Below, piece by piece: positions 2,679 to 41,387 of a stretch of DNA of 43,946 nucleotides (position 1 is the first letter of the stretch; the number at the start of each line of letters is the position of its first letter). Origin of the DNA: a virus (lineage: Duplodnaviria; Heunggongvirae; Uroviricota; Caudoviricetes); IMG/VR virus record IMGVR_UViG_3300045988_019467, one strand, 5' to 3'. Made by a program: the position numbers and the translations under genes. Under the pieces are notes generated by a model that saw only the letters and a list, made by a program, of their open reading frames with translations, made no database searches and was not told where the DNA came from.

Positions 2679-2999
2679 TTATAGCTTAAGTTCTTCCGGC
2701 ACATCCGGCACGGCGTTATATTCCCACCATTCAGAACCATCGTATTCTCCGCGAGAAGACCATGTACCATCTTCGTACCAAATTACCCCGAAGAAGTTTT
2801 GACCGCCATAACCGTTGTGATATTCAAAATCAAGTGCGACCATTAGGCTTTCCCATTCTCCGCGGGAGTAATTCTCCCGCAGGATCCATTTACTCCCCTC
2901 AACGAAACCGTAATCCGCGTCATAGTCTGCAAACCAGGCGCATTTAACTACATCTTTACCATCCAGATGGGCGAGCAACTCTTCTTTAGCATTAATCAT
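2679..2999 (-). CDS. hypothetical small acidic, aromatic-rich protein (moron)
   Basis: 106-aa minus-strand ORF inside the plus-strand head module; strong RBS AAGAGGAAG upstream of ATG 2999; about 22 D/E versus about 8 K/R with many W/Y/F. Confidence 0.55.
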   Translation of the reverse strand: MINAKEELLAHLDGKDVVKCAWFADYDADYGFVEGSKWILRENYSRGEWESLMVALDFEYHNGYGGQNFFGVIWYEDGTWSSRGEYDGSEWWEYNAVPDVPEELKL

Positions 3000-3024: not shown

Positions 3025-3056
3025 TGAATAGTACCCTATTATATTGGTGTCTGCAA
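3025..3056 (-). promoter_or_regulatory. class-1 promoter-like element, copy 1 (on minus strand: TTGCAG-N7-TATAAT-AGGGTACTATTCA)
   Basis: Perfect TATAAT on the minus strand about 40 nt upstream of ATG 2999; conserved about 30-bp motif repeated at 5180, 15061, 37806 and 39002, each oriented toward the adjacent operon. Confidence 0.5.
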
Positions 3057-4633: not shown

Positions 4634-5155
4634 TTATTTAAATCGCGCAGGCATTAACACCATAAAGGCCGTGTTTGAAAATGATATTTTGCATCCTCTG
4701 GTTTGGTCCTGGAAATCGAAACGAGAAATTTCATTTTTGTACGCCTTAGAAATCTTGTACGCGTCTGCCAAATAACGCAGAGTGAACCCTATACTATCGA
4801 CAACACCCGGTGTGATGTGCGCCACGCGTTTCCAGTCAGGAAAGTTTCCTTCTACAACATCTACCGGAAGTGTACATATAAGCGCGCGACTATCGTCATA
4901 GAAAGAAACACTGCCGTTGTCGTGGTCTACCTCTGCGTAGTTAAATTTAGAAGGCTCTCTCCCTTTGATATCAATGAGAACCCCTTTCTCAACGTTTGTC
5001 TTCACATTGTCGCAGAACAATCTATGCCCATTCGTAGACACTATCAACCCCTCAGGTTCTATGTAAAAAGCGTTCAAATAGTAGCGCACATCGTTTTTAG
5101 CCCTGCAGATTTTCGCCCCTACATACGCAGGGAAAGTAATTACCGTAGTAACCAT
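4634..5155 (-). CDS. hypothetical protein (moron, unknown function)
   Basis: 173-aa minus-strand ORF with RBS AGGAGATG before ATG 5155; own promoter-like element and terminator; no motif recognised. Confidence 0.55.
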   Translation of the reverse strand: MVTTVITFPAYVGAKICRAKNDVRYYLNAFYIEPEGLIVSTNGHRLFCDNVKTNVEKGVLIDIKGREPSKFNYAEVDHDNGSVSFYDDSRALICTLPVDVVEGNFPDWKRVAHITPGVVDSIGFTLRYLADAYKISKAYKNEISRFDFQDQTRGCKISFSNTAFMVLMPARFK

Positions 5156-5179: not shown

Positions 5180-5211
5180 TGAATAGTACCCTATTATATT
5201 GGAGTATGCAA
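5180..5211 (-). promoter_or_regulatory. class-1 promoter-like element, copy 2 (on minus strand: TTGCAT-N7-TATAAT-AGGGTACTATTCA)
   Basis: Same motif as 3025..3056; TATAAT on the minus strand about 40 nt upstream of ATG 5155. Confidence 0.5.
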
Positions 5212-5263
5212 ACTATTTGTTTACGCATTCCAGTTATTACACTCAATTGTAAATGTTGGAATA

Positions 5264-5306
5264 AACTATTCGAATAGTTGACTTTTCACTAAAAATATGC
5301 TAAGCT
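5264..5306 (+). promoter_or_regulatory. 16-bp perfect palindrome AACTATTCGAATAGTT overlapping a sigma70-like promoter (TTGACT-17-TAAGCT)
   Basis: Perfect palindrome at 5264..5279 built from the same CTATTC/GAATAG half-sites as the repeated operator; TTGACT at 5278..5283 and TAAGCT at 5301..5306. Confidence 0.35.
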
Positions 5307-14841: not shown

Positions 14842-15033
14842 TTACTTCTCTTTCACGTTCGAGTTGCAAGCCCAGATTAAAATAAATACCCACGGCAGCA
14901 GAACCCAACCAAGAAACAGGTTAGCCATGAATATAGCTAACTTCGCTTTATGGTTACGGAAGTACGCAACCAGGAAAGGTGCGAAATAAGCGAGCAGTGC
15001 AAACAGAATTAAGGAAACTGGTAAACTGGACAT
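14842..15033 (-). CDS. small membrane protein (two predicted TM helices), first gene of moron operon
   Basis: Hydrophobic 63-aa ORF; start taken at ATG 15033 preceded by AAGGGG (an upstream ATG at 15048 is also possible). Confidence 0.4.
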   Translation of the reverse strand: MSSLPVSLILFALLAYFAPFLVAYFRNHKAKLAIFMANLFLGWVLLPWVFILIWACNSNVKEK

Positions 15034-15060
15034 TTTAAACCCCTTCATTGTTGGTGTAAG

Positions 15061-15092
15061 TGAATAGTACCCTATTATATTGGGGTGTGCAA
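15061..15092 (-). promoter_or_regulatory. class-1 promoter-like element, copy 3 (on minus strand: TTGCAC-N7-TATAAT-AGGGTACTATTCA)
   Basis: Same conserved motif; TATAAT on the minus strand about 40 nt upstream of ATG 15033. Confidence 0.5.
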
Positions 15093-15199
15093 GTAATATG
15101 GTAGAATAATTTTGCGCCTAGTGTCGCACACGAAAAGCGGGTGGTTCCCGTCTGGCGCATTTCCTTTAACCAGTAACCTCTTAACCAAAGGATTAAAGA

Positions 15200-15616
15200 A
15201 TGAAACTTTCTGATTTTTATTACGAAGCTGAAGCCGAAAAGGGTGCGCGTATGCCGATACCGTTAAAAGACGGTACCGATTCTGGGGAATGGCTTAATGT
15301 TGTTTCTCCTGAGGCAGACGTTGCCGTTAAGGCTATGCGCGCGTTCACCCTTGCATACCGGGCAGTGTTAGGGAAATTAAAACCGCTTCGTGATAAGTGC
15401 GAAGAGATGAAAGATTTCTCTGAATACAACCTGAAGATGGAAGATGCGGCCACGGACCTTAACCGACAGTTAGCAATTGAATTGATTAACGGGTGGAGCC
15501 TGGACGACGAATTCAATAAAGAGAATCTGAACACACTCCTGACGCAATATAAACGACTCGCGGAACTTGTTGTTGTGTTTCATAACGAACAACTGCGCCA
15601 GTTACAGGAAAAGTAG
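15200..15616 (+). CDS. tail assembly chaperone (gpG-like, putative)
   Basis: 138-aa acidic ORF immediately upstream of the tape measure gene; a -1 frame ORF overlaps its end. Confidence 0.5.
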   Translation: MKLSDFYYEAEAEKGARMPIPLKDGTDSGEWLNVVSPEADVAVKAMRAFTLAYRAVLGKLKPLRDKCEEMKDFSEYNLKMEDAATDLNRQLAIELINGWSLDDEFNKENLNTLLTQYKRLAELVVVFHNEQLRQLQEK

Positions 15617-24258: not shown

Positions 24259-24394
24259 ACTCTTCTGATAACTTCTCCAGTACAAACTCCAGTTGCGCAT
24301 TAGCGGCATCTCTCTGTTGCCGTAGTCGTAGAACCTCCTCCTCAAGTTCCTTGATACGTTTTTGCAATGCCGGAATCGGGGCTATGATGTTCAT
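24257..24394 (-). CDS. small coiled-coil-like hypothetical protein
   Basis: 45-aa ORF whose ATG overlaps the stop of the upstream Toprim gene (ATGA); ends at the terminator. Confidence 0.3.
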   Translation of the reverse strand: MNIIAPIPALQKRIKELEEEVLRLRQQRDAANAQLEFVLEKLSEE

Positions 24395-27117: not shown

Positions 27118-27305
27118 TTCGCCACCAGAACTAACTCTTTACGCCCGAACGCCGTAACGTTACCCGTTACATCTTCGATAACCAGTTTCCCGTTCGACTC
27201 GACGAACACCGTATCAACGGCAACAGGACGACGTGTCTTAACGTTGAAAATCATGTCACCCGGTACGATGTCACGTGCTGGTTTGCGGTCATATTCGTGT
27301 TTCAT
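27114..27305 (-). CDS. hypothetical protein
   Basis: 63-aa ORF with start overlapping the downstream MTase gene. Confidence 0.4.
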   Translation of the reverse strand: MKHEYDRKPARDIVPGDMIFNVKTRRPVAVDTVFVESNGKLVIEDVTGNVTAFGRKELVLVAK

Positions 27306-27323
27306 TTCTCAATTCCTTATAGT

Positions 27324-27340
27324 TAAGGCCCCGAAGGGCC
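27324..27340 (-). other. intergenic GC hairpin (AGGCCC-CGAA-GGGCCT), possible attenuator or RNA stability element
   Basis: Stem-loop between two co-oriented genes, without a clear U-tract. Confidence 0.3.
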
Positions 27341-27344
27341 TGTA

Positions 27345-27599
27345 TTAGTTAGATAATTCGGCTTGAACTTGCTTAATAAGTTCTCCAGCCGTTGTGAAAT
27401 CTACAGACAGCCCTTTAGCGACGTCTTCCGCAAGCACCTTGCGGCCAACTGACCCGAAACCGAGAATACGGTTTACTTCCGAAACCTTCATAGACCATGA
27501 GTAATTAGCTGACGCTCCTGTGTATTTACAGATACGAACAGATGAATCGATTGAACCCATAACCATGGTGTTTACTGACAGTTGAAGTTCGATAGCCAT
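27345..27599 (-). CDS. hypothetical protein
   Basis: 84-aa ORF with RBS AAGGAA, downstream of class-2 promoter copy 7. Confidence 0.4.
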   Translation of the reverse strand: MAIELQLSVNTMVMGSIDSSVRICKYTGASANYSWSMKVSEVNRILGFGSVGRKVLAEDVAKGLSVDFTTAGELIKQVQAELSN

Positions 27600-27600
27600 T

Positions 27601-27918
27601 TTATAATTCCTTATATTGTTGGGGTATGTGCTTACTATAATAGTTCGCTATTAGGGTGTCAACCTGTTTTATCGAACCAACGACAAAAACATTTGCACCG
27701 CGTTTACGCATACGCTCATGCTCTCGTAACTGGTGGGGGTCTGGCTTCGTGTTTTCGTCTTTCTTAACCTCGACGAACCAGACGATGCTGTAGGGGAGAA
27801 TTACCAGCAGGTCAGGAGCGCCCACTCTATTTTCGTAGGAAAGTTTACGAACGAGGCCCCCCAGGGCCTCGAATCGCTCTTTTGCGTATTTCTGCACGCG
27901 CCCCTCAGGCGTACTCAT
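27601..27918 (-). CDS. VRR-NUC domain nuclease (PD-(D/E)xK fold)
   Basis: PD...(D/E)xK-like signature (GAPDLLVIL ... VEVKK) in an approximately 105-aa protein; start taken at ATG 27918. Confidence 0.55.
   Translation of the reverse strand: MSTPEGRVQKYAKERFEALGGLVRKLSYENRVGAPDLLVILPYSIVWFVEVKKDENTKPDPHQLREHERMRKRGANVFVVGSIKQVDTLIANYYSKHIPQQYKEL
27623..27662 (-). promoter_or_regulatory. class-2 promoter, copy 7 (minus strand: TTGACACC-N12-TATTATAGT), inside the 3' end of the VRR-NUC CDS
   Basis: Minus-strand TTGACA (plus 27657..27662) and TATAGT (plus 27634..27639) with about 18-bp spacer; near-identical elements at 31214..31242 and 34199..34228. Confidence 0.5.
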
Positions 27919-27994
27919 AATACACACCCCTCACGTTTCGTATGTTCAATCCCGCAGCGCGGACAGATTCGACAGTCTTCTTCGTAGAACCAAT

Positions 27995-28132
27995 AAATTT
28001 TCACTCCATCACCCACAGATAAATTGCGATGAACATGCCCAATACAGCAACCATCATGCTGTATTGACTCTCGTGACAGTAGACACCGGCGGCGAATCCC
28101 GCCAGTACCGCAATAATCAGTTTACTTGGCAT
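27995..28132 (-). CDS. small hydrophobic protein (putative, very short)
   Basis: 45-aa ORF with two hydrophobic segments between the DNA polymerase and VRR-NUC genes; too short for confident calling. Confidence 0.2.
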
Positions 28133-30323
28133 AGCGTTTTAACTCCTGACCTTCTGCTACAAGAGGGAACCCTTCAGCCCACTCAGGCAACGCGCACATT
28201 AATTTTTCCAGTTCAGCCACCGTGTACTCGGGGGTGTCCGGAGTTTCACATACCAGTTCATCGTGTACCGAAAGCACGATGGGGTACCCGCCGCCCTCAA
28301 CATTAATCATCGCATATGCGAGTAAATCACGGCACAGCGCCTGAACAATGTTTTCGCAGGCTTTGCCGCCGTGGGTGTACAGGGTAGTCCATTGACGGGT
28401 TAACTGGTTTTCGCCCTGATACTTGATTCGCACATTCGTATTCACCCGTCCATCTTCATCTGTTTCCTTTGTCACACTAACGCCGATTCCCGGATACGAG
28501 AGGACGCGACCTGACGGCAACTCCATGCATAACCACCAACCAGGAACCTTCCTGCCGGATGAATCAAATTCTACCGTACGCCATATGCGGATAGCCCTTC
28601 CCCCCTTCCTGCGCAAGTGTGCTCCCGCCCAAAATTCACGACCAGGATTACGAACAGCGGCTAAAATTCCGTCTTTAAGGTCGCGCCAGAACGCTACTGT
28701 TTCCGGGTGTGACTCGCGCCACATACGCTTGATTGCGTCGCAGGTACGCCACACCTTCTTGTCCAGAATATACGACGGTCGGTCGTCCTTTTCACCAGGA
28801 TGTGGTGGTCGCTTTGCTTCCTGGATACGCGCCCATTCATAACCACGTGCAGTAGCCGCCCATATATGATCAGGGAAAGTCCCGTCCATTGTTTTTGCCA
28901 TCTCAATAAGGTCAAGACCTAAATTTTTAGCGAACGTAACGAACGCTCCGACGCCCCCCTCGTAGCCGAGGCCAAGCTCGCAGGCCTTGCCTATCTGTCT
29001 GATTTCCTTGAAGTTTTTCTTAATATCATCTGGGTCCATGCCGAACATCTTACCCGCGGTTACACAGTAAATATCAAGGCCGGCGCGGAACGTATCGAGC
29101 GCGGTTTCTTCACCGGCTAGCCACGCTAAACCGCGACCTTCGACGTTAGAATAATCGGCAACAACAAACTTATGTCCTGCTTCCGGTATGATGCAGCTAC
29201 GCACTGTCGACGCCGTTAGCTTGGCTACGTCGAAACGGCGATGAGCACGACCCTTAAGTAACGCAGAAATGCCTTTATCCAGTTCATCATCGTGATAGTA
29301 ACCGCGCGCCAGGTTCTGTGGCTGGAAGCCTTTACCTGCCCATCGCAGGGTACGTTTTGCTCCGCCGTACTGTAAGCAACCGCGGCGTCGGTCGTCCGAA
29401 GAGCGACCCAACAGCAGCGGGTTATATTTCGTTGATGCGGTGGACGCAGCCCCGAGGCGCATTTCGATAATCGCGCGGGCGTCGTCCGGTAAATCGTCGT
29501 TGGCAAGCAGGTCGTTAAGCGTTGACTTCTGCGCGTTGTGGATTCGGTGTGCTGGTGCGAGTTCCCGCAAAATAGGCAGAAAGTCCTTTCCAGTAAGCGA
29601 GCCGCCGTATTTGCGCTGTGCTTCTTCCTGTAACTGCGCTTTGTGTTTCTCCACGGCTTCAATCGCGGCTTCCGCCAGTGCGACGTCAACCTTAAAGCCT
29701 CGGTCGTTGATTAACTGGTCCAGTTCCAGCACACGGTCCTCAAACTCGGAGTTACCCCAACGCGGCAGCTTATGGAAGACTTCACGCATTGCGGTGATGT
29801 CGCTAACGGCGTACTTGATGAACAGCGCCCACTCGTCTGGGTGCGTTTCTGCGGTGTAACGGCGGATTTTGTAGTTCTTCGGTGTTGGTTTAGAGAAACG
29901 CTGAATCAGCGCCTTACCGCGTTTGTCTTTTGCATTGTCCGCGGATACGCCAAGCACTTCGCACAAGGCATCAAGAGAACCCGGCAGCGCGTGACGAAAC
30001 GCCCAAATCATCGTATCAATGGTGTTGCTCACCGGAATATCAAAGTCCCAACAGTGCTTCATGATGAGCCTGTCGAACATTGATCCGTTGTGCCACACCA
30101 TCTTGATACGGCTGTTCGGCTTAACCAGGCGGCGTAGAGCGCGGTGCAAATCCCCCGGCATGTCGCTGCCATCGGTGCAATCCCACACCTGCACAGGCTC
30201 GTCATCGAAAGCATAGGTACAGATTAGCACTTCGGTAGTTGGGTGTTCTGCGTAAGCATAGGAACCGACTTTCTTTAAATCGGCTTCGGAGAATGTTTCA
30301 AAGTCCAGGTATAAGTAGCTCAT
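28122..30323 (-). CDS. DNA polymerase, family A (Pol I-like) with N-terminal 3'-5' exonuclease domain
   Basis: N-terminal exonuclease motif LYLDFETFS (DxE); C-terminal polymerase motif C (VLSVHDELVCE); 733 aa. Confidence 0.8.
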   Translation of the reverse strand: MSYLYLDFETFSEADLKKVGSYAYAEHPTTEVLICTYAFDDEPVQVWDCTDGSDMPGDLHRALRRLVKPNSRIKMVWHNGSMFDRLIMKHCWDFDIPVSNTIDTMIWAFRHALPGSLDALCEVLGVSADNAKDKRGKALIQRFSKPTPKNYKIRRYTAETHPDEWALFIKYAVSDITAMREVFHKLPRWGNSEFEDRVLELDQLINDRGFKVDVALAEAAIEAVEKHKAQLQEEAQRKYGGSLTGKDFLPILRELAPAHRIHNAQKSTLNDLLANDDLPDDARAIIEMRLGAASTASTKYNPLLLGRSSDDRRRGCLQYGGAKRTLRWAGKGFQPQNLARGYYHDDELDKGISALLKGRAHRRFDVAKLTASTVRSCIIPEAGHKFVVADYSNVEGRGLAWLAGEETALDTFRAGLDIYCVTAGKMFGMDPDDIKKNFKEIRQIGKACELGLGYEGGVGAFVTFAKNLGLDLIEMAKTMDGTFPDHIWAATARGYEWARIQEAKRPPHPGEKDDRPSYILDKKVWRTCDAIKRMWRESHPETVAFWRDLKDGILAAVRNPGREFWAGAHLRRKGGRAIRIWRTVEFDSSGRKVPGWWLCMELPSGRVLSYPGIGVSVTKETDEDGRVNTNVRIKYQGENQLTRQWTTLYTHGGKACENIVQALCRDLLAYAMINVEGGGYPIVLSVHDELVCETPDTPEYTVAELEKLMCALPEWAEGFPLVAEGQELKRYAK

Positions 30324-30475
30324 TTCTTTTTCCTTAAATCCAGTGCCTTCGTTTCACTTAATCTTATTTTCATACAATCACGGCAAATCCACACATGCCT
30401 GTACCCGGCCCGGTACTCATCTGCGTACCACGGAAGCGGTTTCATATAGCGGTATACGTGCTTACAGAAAATCAT
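30320..30475 (-). CDS. small Cys-containing (zinc-ribbon-like) hypothetical protein
   Basis: 51-aa ORF whose stop overlaps the DNA polymerase ATG (ATGA); contains C-x25-C-x2-C. Confidence 0.3.
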   Translation of the reverse strand: MIFCKHVYRYMKPLPWYADEYRAGYRHVWICRDCMKIRLSETKALDLRKKK

Positions 30476-30495
30476 TATTTTCGACCCTTAGTAAA

Positions 30496-30515
30496 AAGGC
30501 CCAATGAAGGGCCTT
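30496..30515 (-). terminator. intrinsic terminator-like hairpin after the SSB-like gene
   Basis: AAGGCCC/GGGCCTT stem followed on the minus strand by TTTTTAC. Confidence 0.4.
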
Positions 30516-30534
30516 AGTTAAATTGATTCAGATA

Positions 30535-31161
30535 TTAACGGCGACGACGTTCACGGCGTGGTGCTCCATCTTCTTCGTCGTCTTCCAGGTCGTCGACACT
30601 TGCGGCGACTTTAGAGCCGCCGAACGCTTTACCTTCGCCGACGTATTTAATGGCCAGCAGGTTAACGCCGAGAACTTTGTATTTCTGGCTAAACCAGATT
30701 TCAACGCTTACGTTGGCAACACAGCCACTGTAAACCTGTTCGCCTTCAATCTGTTCTCCGTCTACATTAAAGTCCTGCTCTACCTGAGTCTCACCTTTTT
30801 TAGAGGTTACAATCAGTGGCTGTTTCTGTGCCTTCGCTTTGAAGTAGAATCCTTCCGGGAAATCTTCAAACGGATTGTCGCGCTCAGCAATATCTTTAAT
30901 CGCACATTTATCCATGTGCTTACCCTCGCCGTAGTTGGATTTCATCCATTTCTCGGCAGCGGCTGCGCCTAACGCTTCTTCAACTACGGCGTAAACAGTG
31001 TCGTAGAGCGCATCGATTTGAGCATGGTCAGACGGCAGGATAATAGTCGCGCTGTACTGGCCTTTAGTGATTGAGCCATCATCGTTTTCACGGTCTTTTT
31101 CGCGTTCGAATACGTTAACCCATGCAGTGTTTACTTTACGCAGATTCAGTTTCAGTCCCAT
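30535..31161 (-). CDS. single-stranded DNA-binding protein, T7 gp2.5-like (putative)
   Basis: Size, position upstream of the DNA polymerase, and an FGG-plus-acidic stretch (AFGGSKVAASVDDLEDDEEDG) recalled as similar to the gp2.5 C-terminal region; basic extreme C-terminus is atypical. Confidence 0.4.
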   Translation of the reverse strand: MGLKLNLRKVNTAWVNVFEREKDRENDDGSITKGQYSATIILPSDHAQIDALYDTVYAVVEEALGAAAAEKWMKSNYGEGKHMDKCAIKDIAERDNPFEDFPEGFYFKAKAQKQPLIVTSKKGETQVEQDFNVDGEQIEGEQVYSGCVANVSVEIWFSQKYKVLGVNLLAIKYVGEGKAFGGSKVAASVDDLEDDEEDGAPRRERRRR

Positions 31162-31213
31162 TTGATTTCTCGCTTTTAAGTTTACTCCGGGAGCTGCCCG
31201 GCCAGTGATTAGA

Positions 31214-31242
31214 ACTATAATAGCTAACTATTCAGGTGTCAA
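31214..31242 (-). promoter_or_regulatory. class-2 promoter, copy 8 (minus strand: TTGACACC-N12-TATTATAGT)
   Basis: Minus-strand TTGACA (plus 31237..31242) and TATAGT (plus 31214..31219); about 50 nt upstream of the SSB-like ATG at 31161. Confidence 0.5.
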
Positions 31243-31397
31243 CGCTTAATTTTAGAAACTTTCTCACACCAAAGAAAATAGCGCTCGATTGACTCACTAT
31301 CGCGAAGTTTACGGTCTACCCACGCGATAGACGAAGTGAACGCGCCTATTACTATAAAAGGAGAAACAAGCGCCCAATACTTAATTTTACGAATCAT
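31239..31397 (-). CDS. small membrane protein (one TM helix)
   Basis: 52-aa ORF with hydrophobic core (YWALVSPFIVIGAFTSSIAWV); ATG overlaps the stop of the upstream gene (ATGA). Confidence 0.35.
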   Translation of the reverse strand: MIRKIKYWALVSPFIVIGAFTSSIAWVDRKLRDSESIERYFLWCEKVSKIKR

Positions 31398-32644
31398 TCT
31401 AAATCCTCCTCTGTTACCTGATTCCACTCAGGCCGTTTGTCGTCTGCCGCTGCAACACATGGTGCCCCCGGCTTGCGTGTGATAAATGGCTCAAGCGCAG
31501 CCATCTCGTCCGCCGACAGAACTTTGGCGGCTTCTGTTGGTGACATCAAAACCTCTTTTTTGAGGATATCGCCGTGTGAAACTTCAATCGCGTCCGCGTC
31601 TTTCCACGCACGATTACCAGGGCGACCCTCAACCAGCTTGTACCCCGGCACTTTCTTGCCGGAATGCAACGCGGCAGACATCGCTTTCTCAACCTTGTCG
31701 ATGTGCTGGCGCAACAACGGCAGCTTCTCATACTCAGTTACGAGTTGCTCCGGTGTCAGTTCCGGCGCAAAGTCGTCTTCAAGTTCTTCCGCCAGCACCG
31801 CGTTAACGGTTTTTGTACGCGCAGCACACTGTTCAGAGAACCGGCACCACTGACAACCACCGACAGACGGCCTGAAGTCAGACGCTTTCAGATTCTTCTT
31901 GCCACGGAAATACGCATCAAGAGCCAACAGTGCACGTTTCTGCGCAAACTTAGCGAACAGTTCCAGACCTTCAACCGAGATGTCCCACTCCGACGCACCG
32001 CCAGCATACGGCTGGAAGATGACCAGACGAACCACGGTGATGTTATAACGCCTCTTTAGTCGGCGATAAACACCGAGAGCGTAAAGCATAAGCTGCTTGT
32101 TTTCTTTCGCTTCGACACGATGCCGCCCGGTTTTCAGGTCGCCGACGGTAAGCATGTGCTCGTCAGTGTTAGCCAATTCCTGAACGGCAACAAGGTCAGC
32201 GGTTCCGAACGTCTCAACGCCTTCGTAACCGGGATGCAATACCTCAGTAAGATTGACACGCATTTCCAGCTTGGCGTAAGTCGCTACATCGATAATCGCT
32301 TTGCAGTAGTCGGTATACTTGCGTACCTGCTCAATCATATCAGCCGTAATCAGTACCGCGCCTTTCATCGGACTGATTAGCGCCTTAATCTGGCCTTTAC
32401 CCTCATCCAGCACATAAGCACCGACTTCACGCTCTAACGGCAACGCAGTACCTTTGATGTACTGATTTAAATGGACCTCGGCTATGGTGTGACACGCGGT
32501 CCCTGTAACGGCAGCTTTACCAGACGTGTTAGGAATATCTTTTTCACAGGCCAGTGATGCACTGCACGTCAGCCACTTCTTAGCACCTGACGGCGATAAT
32601 AAGGCGTGCACATCGTTATTGCCACCGCGTTCTTTTAGAATCAT
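31394..32644 (-). CDS. PD-(D/E)xK exonuclease, Cas4-like (DUF2800-type) with C-terminal Cys cluster
   Basis: N-terminal HALLSPSGAKKWLTCSASL signature; C-terminal Cys cluster (GGCQWCRFSEQC) as in Cas4/AddB-type Fe-S nucleases. Confidence 0.6.
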   Translation of the reverse strand: MILKERGGNNDVHALLSPSGAKKWLTCSASLACEKDIPNTSGKAAVTGTACHTIAEVHLNQYIKGTALPLEREVGAYVLDEGKGQIKALISPMKGAVLITADMIEQVRKYTDYCKAIIDVATYAKLEMRVNLTEVLHPGYEGVETFGTADLVAVQELANTDEHMLTVGDLKTGRHRVEAKENKQLMLYALGVYRRLKRRYNITVVRLVIFQPYAGGASEWDISVEGLELFAKFAQKRALLALDAYFRGKKNLKASDFRPSVGGCQWCRFSEQCAARTKTVNAVLAEELEDDFAPELTPEQLVTEYEKLPLLRQHIDKVEKAMSAALHSGKKVPGYKLVEGRPGNRAWKDADAIEVSHGDILKKEVLMSPTEAAKVLSADEMAALEPFITRKPGAPCVAAADDKRPEWNQVTEEDLE

Positions 32645-33153
32645 TTCTCAGCCCCGTTAACTGTAAACCCATATTTAATCTCGGCTTGCCTACGAGCCTT
32701 AGCCGCGTTCTCTAACTTATCGTAGGCCCCTAAATAAATCGGCCTGCCGTCTACATAAATTCTCGCGACCCACTTACCGTAGCGTTTATGAAACCCAACA
32801 CCTTTAACCCCTGAAGTATTGTCCGTCCGTATGTTGGTGCCGTGTGCGATACTACCTCGGCGCATTTTTATAAGATTTTCTATTCTGTTATCAGTTCTAT
32901 CTTTATTTTTATGACGAATTACTTCCCCCGGCGCTATCGGCCCGTTAAACATCTCCCAAACTACGTGGTGGATAAGTTTAGTAGTCCCGTTAAAACGTAG
33001 TATTTTAAATTCACTCCCGTCGTTGTCCTCCCTCGTACTGCCAGCTTCTTGCCCTATTTTTACAGATTTTGACGGACTTATTTTCCAAAATAATTTACCG
33101 GTATCAGGGTCATAGTCAAAAACTTCATGCCAATTCATACTCTGCTCTCCCAC
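32641..33153 (-). CDS. HNH homing endonuclease with AP2-type DNA-binding domain
   Basis: HNH-like motif (IRHKNKDRTDNRIENL) and AP2-like segment (GVKGVGFHKRYGKWVARIYVDGRPIYLGAY). Confidence 0.65.
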   Translation of the reverse strand: MGEQSMNWHEVFDYDPDTGKLFWKISPSKSVKIGQEAGSTREDNDGSEFKILRFNGTTKLIHHVVWEMFNGPIAPGEVIRHKNKDRTDNRIENLIKMRRGSIAHGTNIRTDNTSGVKGVGFHKRYGKWVARIYVDGRPIYLGAYDKLENAAKARRQAEIKYGFTVNGAEK

Positions 33154-33407
33154 TGGTCAATTAAATGTCGTGTCTGGTGGTGGCAATGCATCGCCCATCC
33201 ATACATCGACTCGAAGACATAAAAGTCAGGTTTGGCGAAAGTCGTGCGCTTAATCTGCGACACGTGACGGCCTATATCTTTAGGCCGTGGTACTTTGCCT
33301 AAGTACGCCATCTCTTCCATCTGGTGCGCACCGGACGGCGCGCGCAACAGCCATAACGCCTCTGTGTTATCCCGCCGGTCAACGGCGCGGTAGAGTTGGT
33401 AAATCAT
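33135..33407 (-). CDS. hypothetical protein
   Basis: Start set at internal ATG 33407 (RBS GAGGG) to avoid overlap with the upstream gene; His/Cys-containing C-terminus. Confidence 0.35.
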   Translation of the reverse strand: MIYQLYRAVDRRDNTEALWLLRAPSGAHQMEEMAYLGKVPRPKDIGRHVSQIKRTTFAKPDFYVFESMYGWAMHCHHQTRHLIDQWESRV

Positions 33408-33419
33408 AATTCTGACCCT

Positions 33420-33443
33420 CAGTTTGGTGCCCTCAATAGCGAG
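33420..33443 (-). other. perfect 9-bp stem hairpin (GGTGCCCTC-N6-GAGGGCACC) in intergenic spacer
   Basis: Perfect inverted repeat between two co-oriented minus-strand genes; no U-tract. Confidence 0.35.
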
Positions 33444-33462
33444 GGCACCATAAGTTAAGTAG

Positions 33463-33990
33463 TTATTCTTCTTCGAAATACTTGTTCTTGATTGCCGTGA
33501 GGCGTTCCAGATATTCAGCCAGGTCTTCGTCTTTAATCGCGGCAATCTTCATTTTCTTACCGGTGAACTCTTCCAGTATTTCATCGGAATCGTCGCACGC
33601 GGCATCGCTCGGACCTTCGTTAATCGCATCGTCGATAGCCTGAATCTGGTCACGCAGAGACTGGTAATCGACTTCTTCTTCCGGCTCCGGTGTTGGTTCC
33701 TCTACAGGTTTAGGGGCTGGTTTTGATTTGCCAGGCTTGCGTTTCGGCTTCTCATCTTCTGCCGGTTTAGTGTCAACGACGTCTTCACCTTCAACCGGGA
33801 TTTCTTTCGCCTTCTCGACTTCTTCAAGTGCTTTAGCCAGTTCTTTTTTAACTGTCTCTACCCCCGTTACCGCGACGTCAACAGTCAATTCACCTACAGA
33901 TTTATTAGTCGGTTGTTTCACACTGTTCGCAGCAATCAGTTCATGCGCAACTACGAAACGTTCCAGTAATACTAAGAATTTCTCTAACAT
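33463..33990 (-). CDS. hypothetical acidic, Pro/Glu/Lys-rich protein
   Basis: 175-aa ORF with low-complexity PKPx/EEE region; stop and start coupled to neighbours. Confidence 0.45.
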   Translation of the reverse strand: MLEKFLVLLERFVVAHELIAANSVKQPTNKSVGELTVDVAVTGVETVKKELAKALEEVEKAKEIPVEGEDVVDTKPAEDEKPKRKPGKSKPAPKPVEEPTPEPEEEVDYQSLRDQIQAIDDAINEGPSDAACDDSDEILEEFTGKKMKIAAIKDEDLAEYLERLTAIKNKYFEEE

Positions 33991-34166
33991 TATTTGTTCT
34001 CCTGTTCGGCGATATTGTTAAGTTCTTTAAGAATGTCTTTCTGCATGTTTTCGGGTAAGAAACGGAATGCCTGAGTAATCATACCTTCAACATCCCCACG
34101 TCCTTCTAGGATGACGTTGGGAAACCACACTTTCCAGTTAGCATCATAATCTTTACGTTTAGCCAT
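33990..34166 (-). CDS. small hypothetical protein (first gene of leftward operon)
   Basis: 58-aa ORF with RBS GAGAGGAAAG downstream of class-2 promoter copy 6; stop overlaps the next ATG (TAATG). Confidence 0.4.
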   Translation of the reverse strand: MAKRKDYDANWKVWFPNVILEGRGDVEGMITQAFRFLPENMQKDILKELNNIAEQENK

Positions 34167-34187
34167 TTTGTTTCTTTCCTCTCGTTT

Positions 34188-34228
34188 GGTATGTGCTAAC
34201 TATAATAGCGAACTATTCATGGTGTCAA
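34188..34228 (-). promoter_or_regulatory. class-2 promoter, copy 6 (minus strand: TTGACACC-N13-TATTATAGT)
   Basis: Minus-strand TTGACA (plus 34223..34228) and TATAGT (plus 34199..34204); divergent from the Cro-like gene. Confidence 0.5.
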
Positions 34229-34292
34229 TGGGCTTTTCTAAAATAATTAATATGGTACTATTCACATATCAACTGACTAAGGAGTAATTGAC

Positions 34293-34508
34293 ATGCAACC
34301 ATCTGAACTAGGCATCCGTGTAGAACAACGCCGTAAAGAACTCGGTATCTCCCAGCGCCGTCTGGCTGTCCTGACCGGCGTTTCTCAGGGCGCGATTAAC
34401 CAACTGGCACTTGGGGTAACTCAGGACGTCCGCCCGGCGACGCTGTTTAAACTGGCGGAAGTGCTGGAAGTAGACGCTAAGTGGCTGGCGTTCGGTGAAG
34501 GGGCTTAA
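34293..34508 (+). CDS. XRE-family HTH transcriptional regulator (Cro/CI-like)
   Basis: Classic HTH_XRE pattern (ELGISQRRLAVLTGVSQGAINQLALG); RBS AAGGAG; transcribed opposite to the surrounding replication operon. Confidence 0.7.
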   Translation: MQPSELGIRVEQRRKELGISQRRLAVLTGVSQGAINQLALGVTQDVRPATLFKLAEVLEVDAKWLAFGEGA

Positions 34509-34524
34509 TGCCCCTTTCTTTTTA
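34498..34524 (+). terminator. intrinsic terminator of the Cro-like gene
   Basis: AAGGGGC-TTAAT-GCCCCTT stem overlapping the stop codon, followed by TCTTTTTA. Confidence 0.5.
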
Positions 34525-34525
34525 C

Positions 34526-36808
34526 CTACTCCAAATCTTCCTCTGTCACCACCAGCATTTCATTCGGTTCGTATATTGTCTTCGGCCTTAATCTATCCCC
34601 TATTCTTTCAGGTATACGATATGTTCTCGGTACTACTTCGCCGTTTGCATCGCAGCCAAGCATTAGTTCACCATCTTTCAACATTTTATCAAGATGGGTG
34701 TTAGTCACAGAGAAGTCACCAGAACGGGCCACTATCTGCTGCTGAGTAAAACCGCGTCCGGTGTCATCAGACTGTTGCAGGTCTTCCAGCGCCGAAAGTA
34801 TTGACTCCTTCCTTCCTTCATCCCTGCCGCGTTTAACCTCTTCCTTTACTTTTTCTTTACCTTTATCAGATAGCCCTTCTTCCCGCTCTTTCTCCTCGTC
34901 AGTTTTGAACGGCTCGAAGCCCCACGGCATCAACACAAGCGCCTTGTGTGGCTCTGGCAGGTCGAGGTTAACGATTGTGCCGTATTCCTCGGTGCTACCC
35001 AGGAACTCAACTGCGCGGTATTCTTTCGGCGGTGGCGCTTCACGGAACTGTACCGACTCCAGAACCATGCCAACCGTCTTCTGTTGAGGCCCGTGCTTAA
35101 ATTTAGAGTGGTATACGTTTATCTGACGGTCTGTAGCGCGTTCGATTGTCAGTTCCACGTCGACACCGGCATACAATGCCCCACTGCCACGGGCTTTCTT
35201 TCCGCCCTTCGGTGTATGGTGGACGACGCCCACCGCGGCTTTAGTTGCGTCACGTACTTCTTTCAGGATGGCGATAACTTTACCCATGCCGATTGCCGTT
35301 GATGAACTGTTCTCGTCGAACTTATCAATCGTCAGTGCCAGCGTCTGGTTGAGGGTGTCGAACGCCACCATGCCGATTGGCTCGCCCTCCGCAGTTTCGC
35401 GCATTAACTTAATCAGGTTTTTCAGTTTTCCGACTTCACCCATGTCGATGACATGTACATAATCTTTACCTTCCTCGCCATATTTAGCCGCGAGTGCGTC
35501 GATACGTGTGCGCGTAGCTGCGCCACCCTCACCGTCGATATAGAAATGGTGGCAACGCTGGGTGTCTGCCCCTGCAAACCGATATCCGGCGGCGCTGAGG
35601 TACATCATCCCCAGCGTATAGAACGACTTGTACGTACCAGACTCACCGACAATATCCCATATGCAATCTGACGGCATATACCCTTCGACGACGAAATCAG
35701 CCTTTACCGGTGCCGGTAACTCATCCTCCTCTGAGTCCTCATCGTCTTCCAGGTCGTCGAGGCTGCATGAAACAGATTCACGCGCACCCCAGCCGATAGC
35801 CTCTGCGACTTCACTGAACGGCAGGCCAGTCGCATCGCACGCATATTTCCACACCTCTTTCGGCGACATGCCTTCGGTTGCCGTAATGTCGGTGTTGTGA
35901 ATCATGGTTACGTTCGGCGCTTCATATCCTTCACGCGGGAAACACAGCAGGAAGTCGTCAGGACGCGGCGTCGGGTCGCTGTAGTTTTCTGCATGCTCTG
36001 GTGTGGCTGGCATCTTAAGGCCGCGCGGCGTCATGATGCCGCCGTACTCGAACGCCAGTGCCTCGAACGCATCAGTAAACGCGGTGCGCAGTTCTTCCGG
36101 TATCTGGTAATCCGATGCGCCGCTAACGTCAACGGCGGGGATGCCTTCCAGCAACTCGTCCGGGTCAATCAGGTCGTTGCGGCGCGACCAGATAACCTGC
36201 GAGCCGACCGGCGGCAGGTACATAGGCTGGGACAGAGTGAACCCGCTGCGGTCAGCACCCATGCCCTTAAAGAAATGCTCCAGCAACCCGTGGCGAACAC
36301 GGATGACGTCACCACCCTCAACCGGGCGGGCCAGTGGCATGACGACGCGAAAGCGCGGTGATTCATCGGTATGGGATGCCGTGGTGTAAATGCACATCGC
36401 CAGGCGGCTGCGCTTAACCAGGCGCACAGCTTCCTGGTACTCTTCCGGTGTTGCACTGTCGAAGTCCAGATACGCCAGCGACGATTTGCTTACAGACGCG
36501 TCACAGCGGTAAAAGAAGCCTTTACGCGCTTGCTTAAAGTCGCCTGTTTCCGGGTCTTTTACGGTGCTGCGTGTCGAGTCGCACGCGGCTGTGATATAGC
36601 CGGGCGCTGTCTTCGGGTTAATTCCATCACGAACAGCATCGAGCGGCTGGATTAACTCTTTCAGGTCGTCCAGTGTTGCCGTGTGTGTGGTTCTGACGTT
36701 TATATCCTTTTTCTCTGCCCGCGCGTTGCGACGGGACCAAGAGTAGGATAAAATTACATCGGACATGTTGTATATTCCTTCAGCAAGTAATTTGGCCTCG
36801 GCGTTCAC
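34526..36808 (-). CDS. DNA primase/helicase (RecA-like ATPase domain)
   Basis: 760-aa protein with Walker A-like GESGTYKS in the C-terminal half; calling the N-terminal half a primase domain is by analogy with P4-type replicases, not a recognised motif. Confidence 0.55.
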   Translation of the reverse strand: MNAEAKLLAEGIYNMSDVILSYSWSRRNARAEKKDINVRTTHTATLDDLKELIQPLDAVRDGINPKTAPGYITAACDSTRSTVKDPETGDFKQARKGFFYRCDASVSKSSLAYLDFDSATPEEYQEAVRLVKRSRLAMCIYTTASHTDESPRFRVVMPLARPVEGGDVIRVRHGLLEHFFKGMGADRSGFTLSQPMYLPPVGSQVIWSRRNDLIDPDELLEGIPAVDVSGASDYQIPEELRTAFTDAFEALAFEYGGIMTPRGLKMPATPEHAENYSDPTPRPDDFLLCFPREGYEAPNVTMIHNTDITATEGMSPKEVWKYACDATGLPFSEVAEAIGWGARESVSCSLDDLEDDEDSEEDELPAPVKADFVVEGYMPSDCIWDIVGESGTYKSFYTLGMMYLSAAGYRFAGADTQRCHHFYIDGEGGAATRTRIDALAAKYGEEGKDYVHVIDMGEVGKLKNLIKLMRETAEGEPIGMVAFDTLNQTLALTIDKFDENSSSTAIGMGKVIAILKEVRDATKAAVGVVHHTPKGGKKARGSGALYAGVDVELTIERATDRQINVYHSKFKHGPQQKTVGMVLESVQFREAPPPKEYRAVEFLGSTEEYGTIVNLDLPEPHKALVLMPWGFEPFKTDEEKEREEGLSDKGKEKVKEEVKRGRDEGRKESILSALEDLQQSDDTGRGFTQQQIVARSGDFSVTNTHLDKMLKDGELMLGCDANGEVVPRTYRIPERIGDRLRPKTIYEPNEMLVVTEEDLE

Positions 36809-36825
36809 CGCGTCGGGGCTTTCTT

Positions 36826-37059
36826 TTATTCCAGGTCTTCTAAAGTAGCGGTCATTCCGCGAACTTCGGCAACGGCACTATATTTCCCGCCAACATTTTT
36901 CACGACACCGGATTTAACCAGTACACGTAACGACCCTTCAATAATGGCTGAACTATAGTACTTAAAATAACTACGGCGCAAGTCCATAACGCTGCACGAC
37001 CTTTTTTTACGGGTTAATGAAACGACCGCCGTAAATACGCGTGACTGGAACTCTGTCAT
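36826..37059 (-). CDS. hypothetical protein (C-terminal ...TLEDLE)
   Basis: 77-aa ORF; ATG overlaps the stop of the upstream gene (ATGA). Confidence 0.4.
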   Translation of the reverse strand: MTEFQSRVFTAVVSLTRKKRSCSVMDLRRSYFKYYSSAIIEGSLRVLVKSGVVKNVGGKYSAVAEVRGMTATLEDLE

Positions 37060-37226
37060 TTCACATTCTCCTTAATCCAGGCTTCCACTTTCTCCGGGTC
37101 AAACGTACCGGGCTGACGACGACCCATAATACGGATACAGCAATCAGGGAACTTCCCACTCTTTAACCAGTTATTCAGCGTGCGACGAGTAACCCCGATA
37201 CGCTCAGCTACTTCATTCTGCGTCAT
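37056..37226 (-). CDS. small HTH DNA-binding protein (AlpA/excisionase-like fold, putative regulator)
   Basis: 56-aa ORF with HTH-like segment (QNEVAERIGVTRRTLNNWLKSGKFP). Confidence 0.4.
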   Translation of the reverse strand: MTQNEVAERIGVTRRTLNNWLKSGKFPDCCIRIMGRRQPGTFDPEKVEAWIKENVK

Positions 37227-37365
37227 CTTTAATCTCCTTAATTACTTCCCGTGCGAACGCTGTAGCTGTGCCGTATTTATTAGGGCAGTATCTGCTCTCG
37301 TCATGCCCGTTAAACCACGCCTCTATCAGCAACTCTTTCAACTGTTCTTCTGTCAAAGTAACCAT
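37213..37365 (-). CDS. small hypothetical protein (first gene after the leftward early promoter)
   Basis: Start taken at ATG 37365 with RBS GAGGGT. Confidence 0.3.
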   Translation of the reverse strand: MVTLTEEQLKELLIEAWFNGHDESRYCPNKYGTATAFAREVIKEIKDDAE

Positions 37366-37397
37366 TCTCAAACCCTCATTATCAGTTAACGAAACCA

Positions 37398-37426
37398 AGT
37401 ATACATTGCGAATAATGGGAAATCAA
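37398..37426 (-). promoter_or_regulatory. sigma70-like promoter for the leftward operon (TTGATT-17-TATACT on minus strand)
   Basis: Minus-strand TTGATT (plus 37421..37426) and TATACT (plus 37398..37403) with 17-bp spacer, about 30 nt upstream of ATG 37365. Confidence 0.4.
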
Positions 37427-37703
37427 ACATAATCGCACCTATTGACATTATGAAAATCTTCGTTTAAGGTGCTTCTATATCTTAGTTACTTTGATTCCTG
37501 TTCACCTTGTAAGAATGTTTAACCCGTGCGTCAAGCAAAGGGTTAAACACAGGCTTACTGAACACAAGAATTATCGTAACTTTCCTTCCTTAGTATCTCC
37601 GGTTGCCCTGGGCAAGCTCTATTCTCATCAGCGGCATATCTCTTAAGTATCTGATTTTCTTAATGTGCCGTAGATTCGCAACCGTAAAAATGTAACGATT
37701 ATT

Positions 37704-37724
37704 GGGCAGGCTTAAGGCCTGCCC
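37704..37724. other. GC-rich hairpin (GGGCAGG-CTTAAGG-CCTGCCC) in the large intergenic control region
   Basis: Inverted repeat around a CTTAAG core, with only a short T-tract after it. Confidence 0.3.
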
Positions 37725-37805
37725 TTTAGTTACCAAGTAACAAGAATAAAGGCACAACCTTTCCTGAAGAATCACAACGGCAACGTAACCATTTTCAATG
37801 AATCT

Positions 37806-37838
37806 CTTGCGCACCCCAACATAATAGGATACTATTCA
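37806..37838 (+). promoter_or_regulatory. class-1 promoter-like element, copy 4 (TTGCGC-N7-CATAAT-AGGATACTATTCA)
   Basis: Same motif as the minus-strand copies, here on the + strand about 45 nt upstream of ATG 37870. Confidence 0.5.
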
Positions 37839-37869
37839 CTTATCGAAACGAGACAGAGGAGTGAGGGTT

Positions 37870-38840: not shown

Positions 38841-38885
38841 CAGGTGGTGTAACAGGTCAATAGCTTACTATTTTACTGAGTGACT

Positions 38886-38925
38886 TACGCTGCTACACAG
38901 CAGCGTATCATTTTTCTCATTTTTG
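38886..38925 (+). terminator. intrinsic terminator (TACGCTGCT-ACAC-AGCAGCGTA + T-rich tail)
   Basis: 9-bp perfect stem followed by TCATTTTTCTCATTTTTG. Confidence 0.6.
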
Positions 38926-39001: not shown

Positions 39002-39033
39002 TTGCACACTGGGATAGAATAGGCTACTATTCA
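39002..39033 (+). promoter_or_regulatory. class-1 promoter-like element, copy 5 (TTGCAC-N7-TAGAAT-AGGCTACTATTCA)
   Basis: Same motif; + strand, about 45 nt upstream of ATG 39062 and just after the terminator. Confidence 0.5.
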
Positions 39034-41273: not shown

Positions 41274-41303
41274 CCCGGCCCTGACCCAGCCGGGATTTTT
41301 TTT
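41274..41303 (+). terminator. intrinsic terminator after the lysis cassette
   Basis: CCCGGC-N9-GCCGGG stem followed by a run of eight T. Confidence 0.7.
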
Positions 41304-41324
41304 ATCTATTTTCTGCTATGACTA

Positions 41325-41353
41325 GTTGACTAATACCATCGACCCTATTATAT
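41325..41353 (+). promoter_or_regulatory. sigma70-like promoter (TTGACT-17-TATATT) containing the CCCTATTATATT half-motif
   Basis: TTGACT at 41325..41330 and TATATT at 41348..41353; shares CCCTATTATATT with the class-1 elements. Confidence 0.4.
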
Positions 41354-41387
41354 TTACTCCATCGACAACGAGAACGGAGTAGAGAAG

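Follow-up and report, generated by a model that had tools for sequence, protein, structure and literature searches.

We propose that a 71-amino-acid (71-aa) XRE-family protein of the 434 Cro type, encoded in a Kagunavirus genome, binds as a dimer to a 14-bp palindrome, AATAG-N4-CTATT, turning down at least nine promoters in a one-repressor, Cro-like circuit; we put the probability of this reading at roughly 0.55. The proposed binding draws on the architecture of the operators, the position of the palindrome within promoter cores, its conservation, its co-occurrence with the gene and half-sites that are in part mirrored between lineages. The gene and the motif were each known before, and the link between them is new: our literature search found no report that connects the XRE protein to the repeated motif or tests either of them, and it turned up no data on binding, transcription starts or mutants for any of the family's members.

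The window (the whole 43,946-nt stretch of DNA that we analysed) is, by its sequence matches, an essentially complete genome of a Kagunavirus (Guernseyvirinae), a lytic E. coli phage. This assignment follows from a BLAST search with positions 33900..34700, which returned 194 phage records at 80–99% identity, most of them from Guernseyvirinae that infect Escherichia or Salmonella, and from the helix-turn-helix (HTH) protein itself, which is 100% identical to its counterpart in Escherichia phage BEU33 and 96–99% identical to those in many Kagunavirus records. Published descriptions of Kagunavirus-type phages report no integrase or lysogeny genes (PMC9825357; PMC13216507). An earlier, sequence-only reading of this DNA had seen neither a CI-type repressor nor an integrase, which we confirm; neither is annotated in the relatives SE2 or fBC-Eco01. 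Hundreds of phage records already label the XRE gene "HTH", "transcriptional repressor" or "DicA", gp52 of fBC-Eco01 being an annotated example, and the '8 kDa' protein of Salmonella phage MB78 is its Jerseyvirus-type homologue. The record names '8 kDa' and '13.88 kDa late protein' both stem from MB78.

A Cro-like gene with its own signals

The gene occupies positions 34293..34508 on the plus strand. Its 71-aa product scores 47.2 bits with Pfam HTH_3 (cut-off 23; E=2.3e-12), and the HTH_19 and HTH_31 profiles also exceed their cut-offs. Within a 13.0-kb run of minus-strand genes (24391–37398) it is the sole plus-strand gene, set between the primase/helicase gene and a divergent class-2 promoter that we denote P_L, so that the sequence-only reading was right on the gene, its isolation and its neighbours. 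This layout is shared with annotated relatives (fBC-Eco01 genes 045–056; SE2 gp01–gp15). The features of the locus are as follows.

34199..34228, minus strand: P_L, leftward sigma-70-type promoter (class 2), TTGACA-18-TATAGT, predicted from consensus
34204..34217, no strand assigned: O_L, candidate operator, a perfect copy (AATAGCGAACTATT) inside the P_L spacer, from the palindrome search
34234..34261, plus strand: putative promoter of the XRE gene, with -35 TTTTCT at 34234..34239, a 16-nt spacer, and TGg plus TACTAT at 34253..34261, from sequence and analogy with class 1
34249..34262, plus strand: O_R, candidate operator, a one-mismatch copy (AATATGGTACTATT) over the XRE gene's own -10, from the palindrome search
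34279..34284, plus strand: Shine-Dalgarno sequence AAGGAG, 8 nt 5' of the ATG, from sequence
34293..34508, plus strand: coding sequence of the 71-aa XRE/Cro-type HTH protein, ATG start, from the open reading frame list, Pfam, and PDB sequence and fold matches
34497..34524, plus strand: predicted intrinsic terminator with stem GAAGGGGC / GCCCCTTT, the stop codon within the TTAAT loop and a T-run after the hairpin, from sequence, folding and conservation
34526..36808, minus strand: primase/helicase gene (AAA_25), convergent with the HTH gene, from the open reading frame list and Pfam

The gene is monocistronic, with a terminator at its stop codon and the convergent primase gene beyond. The terminator stem-loop (34497..34517) has eight pairs, five of them G–C, runs on into CTTTTT and folds with z = -3.15; the stop codon TAA (34506..34508) lies within its loop. 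It thus has the G+C-rich hairpin followed directly by a T-run that characterizes intrinsic terminators, and the overlap between terminator and stop codon noted in the sequence-only reading stands. The hairpin is retained in all 25 Kagunavirus sequences, and Jerseyvirus SE2 has a hairpin with a different stem sequence. The minus-strand version also folds (z = -3.35) but has no T-run after it, so the predicted terminator is probably one-directional, halting the HTH transcript only and not read-through from the convergent primase/helicase gene.

Upstream, a 126-bp intergenic region holds two palindrome sites only, 45 bp apart from centre to centre. The divergent promoter P_L, proposed earlier and upheld here, matches the consensus at 11 of 12 positions (TTGACA at 34228..34223, a spacer of 18 and TATAGT ending at 34199), with its hexamers at the 16–18 bp spacing of sigma-70 promoters, and the same architecture recurs at 31242..31214 and 27662..27634. 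On this consensus assignment, P_L would drive the adjacent 58-aa gene (33990..34166) and the genes downstream of it. These divergent neighbours encode the 58-aa protein and a 175-aa protein, neither with a Pfam match, followed by an HNH endonuclease and an exonuclease gene; the 58-aa gene, which lies on the other strand from the XRE gene, has no family match and is missing from most relatives.

On the other side, a 'half-copy' of the motif had been placed at 34254..34265 by the sequence-only reading. A copy is indeed present in the 5' region, but it is a full 14-bp palindrome with one mismatch, at 34249..34262 (O_R). The mismatch creates a TG two bases upstream and hence an extended -10. The XRE gene's putative own promoter would therefore pair a poor -35 with an extended -10, and appears to be a weak, class-1-like promoter. 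An 11-mer of O_R, GGTACTATTCA, is identical in three other palindrome copies.

We compared the 135 nt 5' of the ATG among 24 distinct Kagunavirus sequences. Neither arm of O_L changes in any of them, its N4 varies (CGAA, CTAA, TGAA, CGAG, CAAA), and the 3–5 nt that adjoin O_L towards the -35 are hypervariable and include an indel. Hardly any change affects the block with O_R and the -10 of the XRE gene. The -35 and the -10 of P_L are each conserved in 23 of the 24, and the Shine-Dalgarno AAGGAG is kept in 23, the remaining one reading AAGGAA. In the coding sequence, 25 Kagunavirus sequences vary at 43 codons by synonymous changes only and at 8 codons by changes of amino acid, and 47 of the 57 variable bases fall at third codon positions. 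This dominance of synonymous variation, together with the retention of the terminator in all 25, marks the gene as real and under strong purifying selection.

The same pattern bears on a reading in which the gene is a decaying relic of a temperate ancestor's immunity region and is now functionless. Such an origin would fit a genome with no CI and no integrase that carries other temperate-looking pieces, namely an excisionase-like HTH_17 gene, a superinfection-immunity gene and an int-alpA RNA motif. The codon variation, however, comes close to refuting it; moreover, records of the XRE gene are about as numerous as those of the primase gene, and the Shine-Dalgarno sequence, the promoter block and the terminator are all conserved. 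We regard this reading as highly improbable.

Sequence and predicted fold both place the protein in the XRE/434-Cro fold family. Among solved structures the best match by sequence is 434 Cro, itself 71 aa long (E=2.1e-6, residues 6–68 against 4–64, nearly end to end). An AlphaFold2 model built with 56 homologues (pLDDT 92.1) predicts helices at residues 5–17, 21–28, 32–40, 48–57 and 62–67, the compact five-helix fold with the HTH at helices 2–3 that typifies 434 Cro, and Foldseek again returns 434 Cro (2cro) as the best PDB match (TM 0.81/0.88, 40% identity), with the SinR N-terminal domain, P22 C2, 434 repressor, the C proteins C.AhdI and C.BclI, and HipB as further neighbours. The predicted recognition helix comprises residues 32–40 (QGAINQLAL), whose first Gln is nearly invariant (at least 90%) across the 56 relatives. 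Beyond the Guernseyvirinae, homologues at about 40–44% identity occur in lambdoid phages and enterobacterial genomes; in the lambdoid Klebsiella phage GZ7, a 44%-identical homologue occupies the cro position, between cI and cII. A search of a representative library gave 1451 matches at E<=1e-3, mostly multi-HTH proteins, which says only that the superfamily is large.

A palindrome repeated in promoter cores

No other 5-N-5 palindrome in the window is repeated nearly as often as AATAG-N4-CTATT: it has 10 exact copies and 13 copies at no more than one mismatch, where 1.2 are expected, and in none of 100 shuffles did the count reach 13. Nine of the copies lie 14–57 nt 5' of start codons and overlap promoter cores (-35/-10 pairs), in two registers. 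In class 2 (27639, 31219 and 34204, all leftward), TTGACA is followed after 4–5 nt by the palindrome, which fills the spacer, and then by ATAGT. In class 1 (3027, 5182 and 15063 leftward; 37823 and 39018 rightward), TTGCAn is followed after 10 nt by the palindrome, whose right arm forms the -10 TACTAT. Apart from the two sites beside the XRE gene, the candidate operators listed from palindrome and promoter matches are the following.

3027..3040, minus strand: within a class-1 promoter (TTGCAG...TACTAT) that precedes 2679..2999
5182..5195, minus strand: within a class-1 promoter that precedes 4634..5155
15063..15076, minus strand: within a class-1 promoter that precedes the superinfection-immunity gene 14842..15048
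27639..27652, minus strand: within a class-2 promoter (TTGACA-17-TATAGT) that precedes 27345..27599
31219..31232, minus strand: within a class-2 promoter that precedes the ssDNA-binding-like gene 30535..31161 and the gene for DNA polymerase
37823..37836, plus strand: copy in a class-1 promoter, upstream of a rightward small-gene cluster from 37861
38859..38872, no strand assigned: exact palindrome copy just 5' of a terminator at 38886..38907, with no clear promoter
39018..39031, plus strand: copy in a rightward class-1 promoter (TTGCAC...TACTAT)

The promoters with a palindrome, at least nine in number, are sigma-70-type by consensus and belong to non-structural genes. The palindromes at 3027, 5182 and 15063 may also lie in rightward promoters for structural genes, which would blur a picture of control over early promoters only. 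Two other promoter regions may escape control by the XRE protein: that of the primase operon itself (candidate at 37398..37426) contains no copy of the palindrome, and the rightward promoter ahead of the packaging genes (41326..41354) contains one half-site only. The gene-poor stretch 37400..37860 yielded no convincing iterons. We rejected TAGTTGAC as the marker of a third, 'late' promoter class (2 occurrences against 1.04 expected, which is not significant).

A palindrome so closely tied to promoters could be an intrinsic promoter feature, such as an AT-rich -10-like or spacer element, with no dedicated binder, in which case the target of the HTH protein would lie elsewhere. In class 1 the right arm CTATT contributes to the -10, and in class 2 the arm borders directly on that hexamer; this overlap with -10-like sequence means that promoter constraint could account for part of the motif's conservation. 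PHIRE-based papers likewise treat the motif as a promoter: seven 'phage promoters' with the consensus tgAATAGTa-ccTATTat-T have been published and ascribed to a phage RNA polymerase (PMC9825357). However, the SE2 annotation, consulted for the relatives, includes no gene for such an enzyme. The two registers relative to the -35 also argue against a mere promoter element, as does the left arm, which lies outside any hexamer and yet is invariant while the bases adjoining it vary; among 24 Kagunavirus loci the 152 instances of the palindrome contain 24 distinct N4 spacers. In two other lineages, moreover, the arms change in mirror image (see below). We therefore consider the promoter-element explanation improbable and favour a dedicated binder, for which the XRE protein is our candidate.

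The locus and the motif across Guernseyvirinae

None of the Guernseyvirinae-like genomes or loci that we examined by locally run tblastn lacks the XRE gene, although its setting differs between lineages. In Kagunavirus and Jerseyvirus (35 loci), the primase gene lies on the opposite strand to the XRE gene, whereas in all other lineages examined (Tsm2, TS33, TS6/Shemara (Cornellvirus), L010, L011, L046–L053, L057 and L068) the XRE gene precedes the primase gene, reads in the same direction and is divergent from the operon of exonuclease, ssDNA-binding and polymerase genes. The sequence-only reading had described the gene as transcribed against the replication operon; that orientation is present here, but its co-directional state in all the other lineages indicates that it is a derived one, reached in Kagunavirus and Jerseyvirus when the primase segment became inverted. 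What is constant across the lineages, as judged from these comparisons, is the divergent promoter pair with its candidate operators.

Kagunavirus and Jerseyvirus also share a second HTH gene, the only other one in the window.

37056..37226, minus strand: HTH_17, excisionase-like, the first recognizable gene of the leftward primase operon (Pfam E=2.1e-7; PHROG 66)

Among the lineages examined, HTH_17 was detected only in these two genera, in all 31 of their loci that extend far enough; we did not detect it in the others. A scan of ten further genes of the window, mostly small leftward and island genes, found no other regulator domains. The presence of HTH_17 raises the question of which protein would occupy the dispersed sites: the XRE protein might control its own divergent region only, or act on host or prophage operators, and the dispersed palindromes might be bound by HTH_17, by an unrecognized phage protein or by a host protein. 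In keeping with this, Jerseyvirus shares the motif with Kagunavirus although its XRE protein is only 49–51% identical, and its HTH_17 is 86–89% identical. The distribution of the motif points the other way. AATAG..CTATT is common to Kagunavirus, Jerseyvirus and Tsm2, being enriched at orthologous promoters both in Jerseyvirus SE2 (7 copies, with 1.1 expected) and in Serratia phage Tsm2 (4 copies, with 0.8 expected); sites orthologous to the copy at 37823..37836, for instance, are present in both. Tsm2 and the L046 group carry the motif at orthologous promoters and have no detected HTH_17, so the motif exists there without it. In addition, the copies beside the XRE gene belong to the same family as the dispersed ones, sharing the 11-mer of O_R described above, and we know of no excisionase-type HTH_17 protein that recognizes 5-N4-5 palindromes, which counts against HTH_17 as the binder. 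A different binder is unlikely in our estimate, if the least unlikely of the alternatives, and we retain the XRE protein as the preferred one.

If the XRE protein is the binder, its recognition helix and the half-sites might be expected to vary together. Exact k-mer and genome-wide palindrome counts, meant for unbiased motif finding in the relatives, were swamped by GC-rich coding noise, and we therefore turned to a promoter-anchored pattern listing, which presupposes A[AT]TA..TA[AT]T and from which the following variants come. Kagunavirus has the helix SQGAINQ and AATAG-N4-CTATT. In L050, with the helix TQGGIGH, the promoters carry AATAC-N4-GTATT, positions 5 and 10 being changed in mirror image; in Cornellvirus, with TQSAISH, the class-1 promoters carry ATTAG-N4-GTAAT, positions 2 and 13 being so changed, and the class-2 promoters keep GTATT on one arm, so that the mirroring is incomplete. 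TS33 and L010 have mixed half-site variants. The Jerseyvirus motif is identical to that of Kagunavirus, although the two helices are rather dissimilar (SQSLITH against SQGAINQ), and the L057/L068 lineage has the XRE gene and lacks an AATAG-type motif. Half-site variants thus seem to track lineages with differing recognition helices and are mirrored in part, a pattern that is suggestive and not clean.

A proposed circuit and its relation to known systems

The position of the palindrome within promoter cores, in the spacer of class 2 and over the -10 of class 1, implies that its occupancy should exclude host RNA polymerase. We therefore envisage the following course, in which both the sign of regulation (repression) and its timing are conjectural. 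Host RNA polymerase would start at the strong operator-bearing promoters, while the XRE protein accumulates from its own weak promoter. Its dimer would then occupy the perfect copies and so lower the expression of replication, early and island genes, the affected promoters being probably the early and middle ones of the phage. The imperfect O_R, one mismatch from the palindrome and lying over the gene's own -10, would be filled later, at a higher protein concentration, giving negative autoregulation. The terminator would keep the XRE transcript from running antisense into the convergent primase gene. Such a circuit would serve as a shut-down and homeostasis device in an obligately lytic phage.

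The opposite sign of regulation deserves consideration. The XRE protein might activate, or, as C proteins do, activate and repress depending on its concentration, and would then bring about a delayed switch-on of the class-1 and class-2 promoters after infection. C.AhdI and C.BclI are among its structural neighbours, and a weak promoter with a site of its own is what C genes have. In K1B4, the source of the only Kagunavirus transcriptome available (PMC12645636), gene 004 and gene 008 correspond to the XRE gene and HTH_17, respectively, on gene order only; by this mapping, the XRE gene appears to be classed as middle and HTH_17 as early, and a middle rather than an early XRE gene would suit an activator if the mapping is right. 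The class-2 promoters, however, match the consensus at 11 of 12 positions and so should not need an activator, and the sites lie between the -35 and the -10 or over the -10, where a bound protein normally occludes RNA polymerase, not at about -41 or further upstream. We judge activation less probable than a different binder, yet more probable than the promoter-element explanation, and keep repression as the favoured sign. The K1B4 classification also makes 'early' timing of the XRE gene doubtful; of the earlier suggestion of a Cro-type early/late regulator, the Cro likeness holds by sequence and predicted fold (434 Cro), whereas the 'early' part is in question.

Extended to the subfamily, the proposal would be that a single Cro-like protein is the master temporal regulator of all Guernseyvirinae, as a subfamily of obligately lytic siphophages, acting through operators in essentially all non-structural promoters; that repressor and operator specificity co-diverged between genera (AATAG/CTATT, AATAC/GTATT, ATTAG/GTAAT) into orthogonal 434-type pairs; and that the inversion in Kagunavirus and Jerseyvirus uncoupled the primase operon. 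We offer this wider view tentatively, as somewhat less than an even bet.

Few phages are put forward for therapy and food biocontrol as often as Kagunaviruses and Jerseyviruses, and the 'repressor' label that their genomes routinely carry can be misread by lifestyle screens as a sign of lysogeny. If the protein were shown to be a regulator of the lytic cycle, with no CI or integrase partner, that ambiguity would be removed. A single repressor with about ten operators would be a simple, testable model for temporal control in Guernseyvirinae; if true, it would also correct the attribution of the motif to a phage RNA polymerase in the literature. Should the half-site variants match the changes in the recognition helix, they would supply compact natural repressor–operator pairs for synthetic circuits and a clean case for the evolution of 434-type specificity.

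Several known systems provide points of comparison. In the annotated Kagunavirus and Jerseyvirus records ('repressor' and PHIRE entries), the same gene and motif occur, but the gene is named by its domain only. An XRE-type antitoxin (HigA / HipB) was rejected as an identity for the protein: there is no co-directional neighbour to serve as a toxin partner. The controller (C) proteins of restriction–modification systems (C.AhdI, C.BclI, C.PvuII) resemble it as small XRE-fold dimers that act on palindromic boxes at their own promoters and serve as post-entry timing devices. Here, in contrast, no nuclease gene is linked, the sites are spread over many promoters, and their place in the promoter core predicts repression only. 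We likewise rejected identity with a C protein, given that no nuclease gene shares an operon with the XRE gene and that the terminator directly follows it.

Compared with the CI/Cro switch, the locus has no divergent cI-type gene (an HTH with an S24 peptidase/oligomerization domain) and, in place of three adjacent operators between PR and PRM, two sites only. Nor is the XRE gene, in the window, the first gene of a rightward early operon, although it heads a short operon, with the primase gene among its members, in the remaining Guernseyvirinae-like lineages that we examined. With no CI partner there is no bistable switch, and the 'genetic switch' of the sequence-only reading fails in that sense: a second repressor is missing, and the divergent partner is an operon of replication and unknown-function genes instead of cI. 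The Kagunavirus and Jerseyvirus gene further differs from lambdoid cro in being monocistronic, with its own terminator and convergent on a primase gene. What its product shares with lambdoid Cro is the character of a small, single-domain repressor encoded at a divergent promoter region, with a proposed role in turning down early transcription and its own synthesis.

From the 434 system it differs in having no CI partner and no tripartite OR/OL, the candidate operators being instead dispersed over at least nine promoters of a lytic genome; the half-site is AATAG and not ACAA(n), and Gly stands in place of the second Gln of the 434 'QQ' pair. Operators of 434 are 14 bp long, with the outer 5 + 5 bases contacted and the inner 4 not contacted (PMC1636474). 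The phage palindrome has the same layout (14 bp, 5 + 4 + 5), and the protein proposed to bind it matches 434 Cro in its length of 71 aa, its five predicted helices and the placement of the HTH at helices 2–3.

Orientation and alleles of the primase/helicase segment

The segment carrying the primase/helicase gene (window 34526..37226) was set against the corresponding loci of relatives L004, L006, L007, L008, L010, L011 and L046-L053. Its orientation in Kagunavirus and Jerseyvirus is inverted relative to that in all other Guernseyvirinae-like lineages examined, and the inverted state goes together with an excisionase-like gene leading the primase operon. The features of this region are as follows.

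32641..33153 (-), homing-endonuclease gene with HNH_3 and AP2 domains
33990..34166 (-), additional 58-aa gene that matches no family
34293..34508 (+), HTH gene encoding a 71-aa 434-Cro-like protein, the proposed repressor
34526..36808 (-), primase/helicase gene
37056..37226 (-), HTH_17, the excisionase-like gene
37400..37860, gene-poor stretch

In some Kagunaviruses (loci L012, L018-L020 and L028), the primase/helicase allele shares 32% identity with that of the window, its position and orientation being unchanged, and the genes of Bas72 and Bas75 match the window's in the C-terminal half only. These two patterns point to modular replacement, in which the primase gene would have been swapped beside a constant HTH gene in Kagunavirus loci.

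Variable genes and the gene-poor stretch

The 58-aa gene lies directly downstream of a class-2 promoter, in which the palindrome AATAG-N4-CTATT, the putative operator, falls between -35 and -10. It is missing from most Kagunavirus records, whose BLAST matches break into two pieces; it is found in EC3-1 (91% identity) and probably also in EcoPhCCP1, as a single unbroken match crosses the region there. The homing-endonuclease gene sits within the replication operon, and its presence and position differ between relatives (fBC-Eco01, Shemara and L010).

The gene-poor stretch spans roughly 450 bp between the leftward primase operon and a rightward cluster of small genes, and contains a hairpin (37704..37724). 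Nearby, 37354..37395 is a degenerate partial copy of the promoter region 37781..37849. The Jerseyvirus SE2 has about 1 kb of unannotated sequence in the equivalent place. Short repeats of iteron-like appearance (GGACAA or CTCCCCC runs) lie beside the primase gene in L010, L011 and the Cornellvirus TS6; no clear iterons were found in the window's gene-poor stretch.

Promoter-like sites, palindromes and an RNA motif

Further sites lie elsewhere in the window.

5262..5282 (+), everted palindrome CTATTCGAATAG adjoining a TTGACT -35-like hexamer
15111..15175 (+), full-length match to the Rfam int-alpA RNA (RF02996)
41276..41304 (approximate), terminator-like hairpin and T-run
41326..41354 (+), promoter-like TTGACT-17-TATATT

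The last of these, just after the terminator-like element, precedes genes leading to the packaging genes. Because it holds a single CTATT half-site, it is a candidate for a promoter free of the proposed repressor's control; SE2 has a similar site at ~15716. The string TAGTTGAC of the 5262..5282 site recurs before the 41326 promoter, its two occurrences in the window not differing significantly from the 1.04 expected.

The int-alpA match scores 36.6 bits (gathering score 35.8). It is flanked by a class-1 promoter copy (15063), with the palindrome over the -10, and by the plus-strand gene 15200..15616, which synteny with SE2 identifies as a predicted tail assembly chaperone. TS6 and TS33, the latter another Guernseyvirinae-like relative, have a similar 'gatagaataattttgcg' string in the equivalent position.

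The AATAG-type motif is absent from the lineage of L057 (9830..9880) and L068, whose XRE homologue (92-93 aa, provided that the script-chosen upstream ATG is the true start) is extended at its N-terminus. The divergent promoter of that lineage instead has a perfect palindrome of another sequence, AAAGTGCT-N5-AGCACTTT, with the -35 at its centre.
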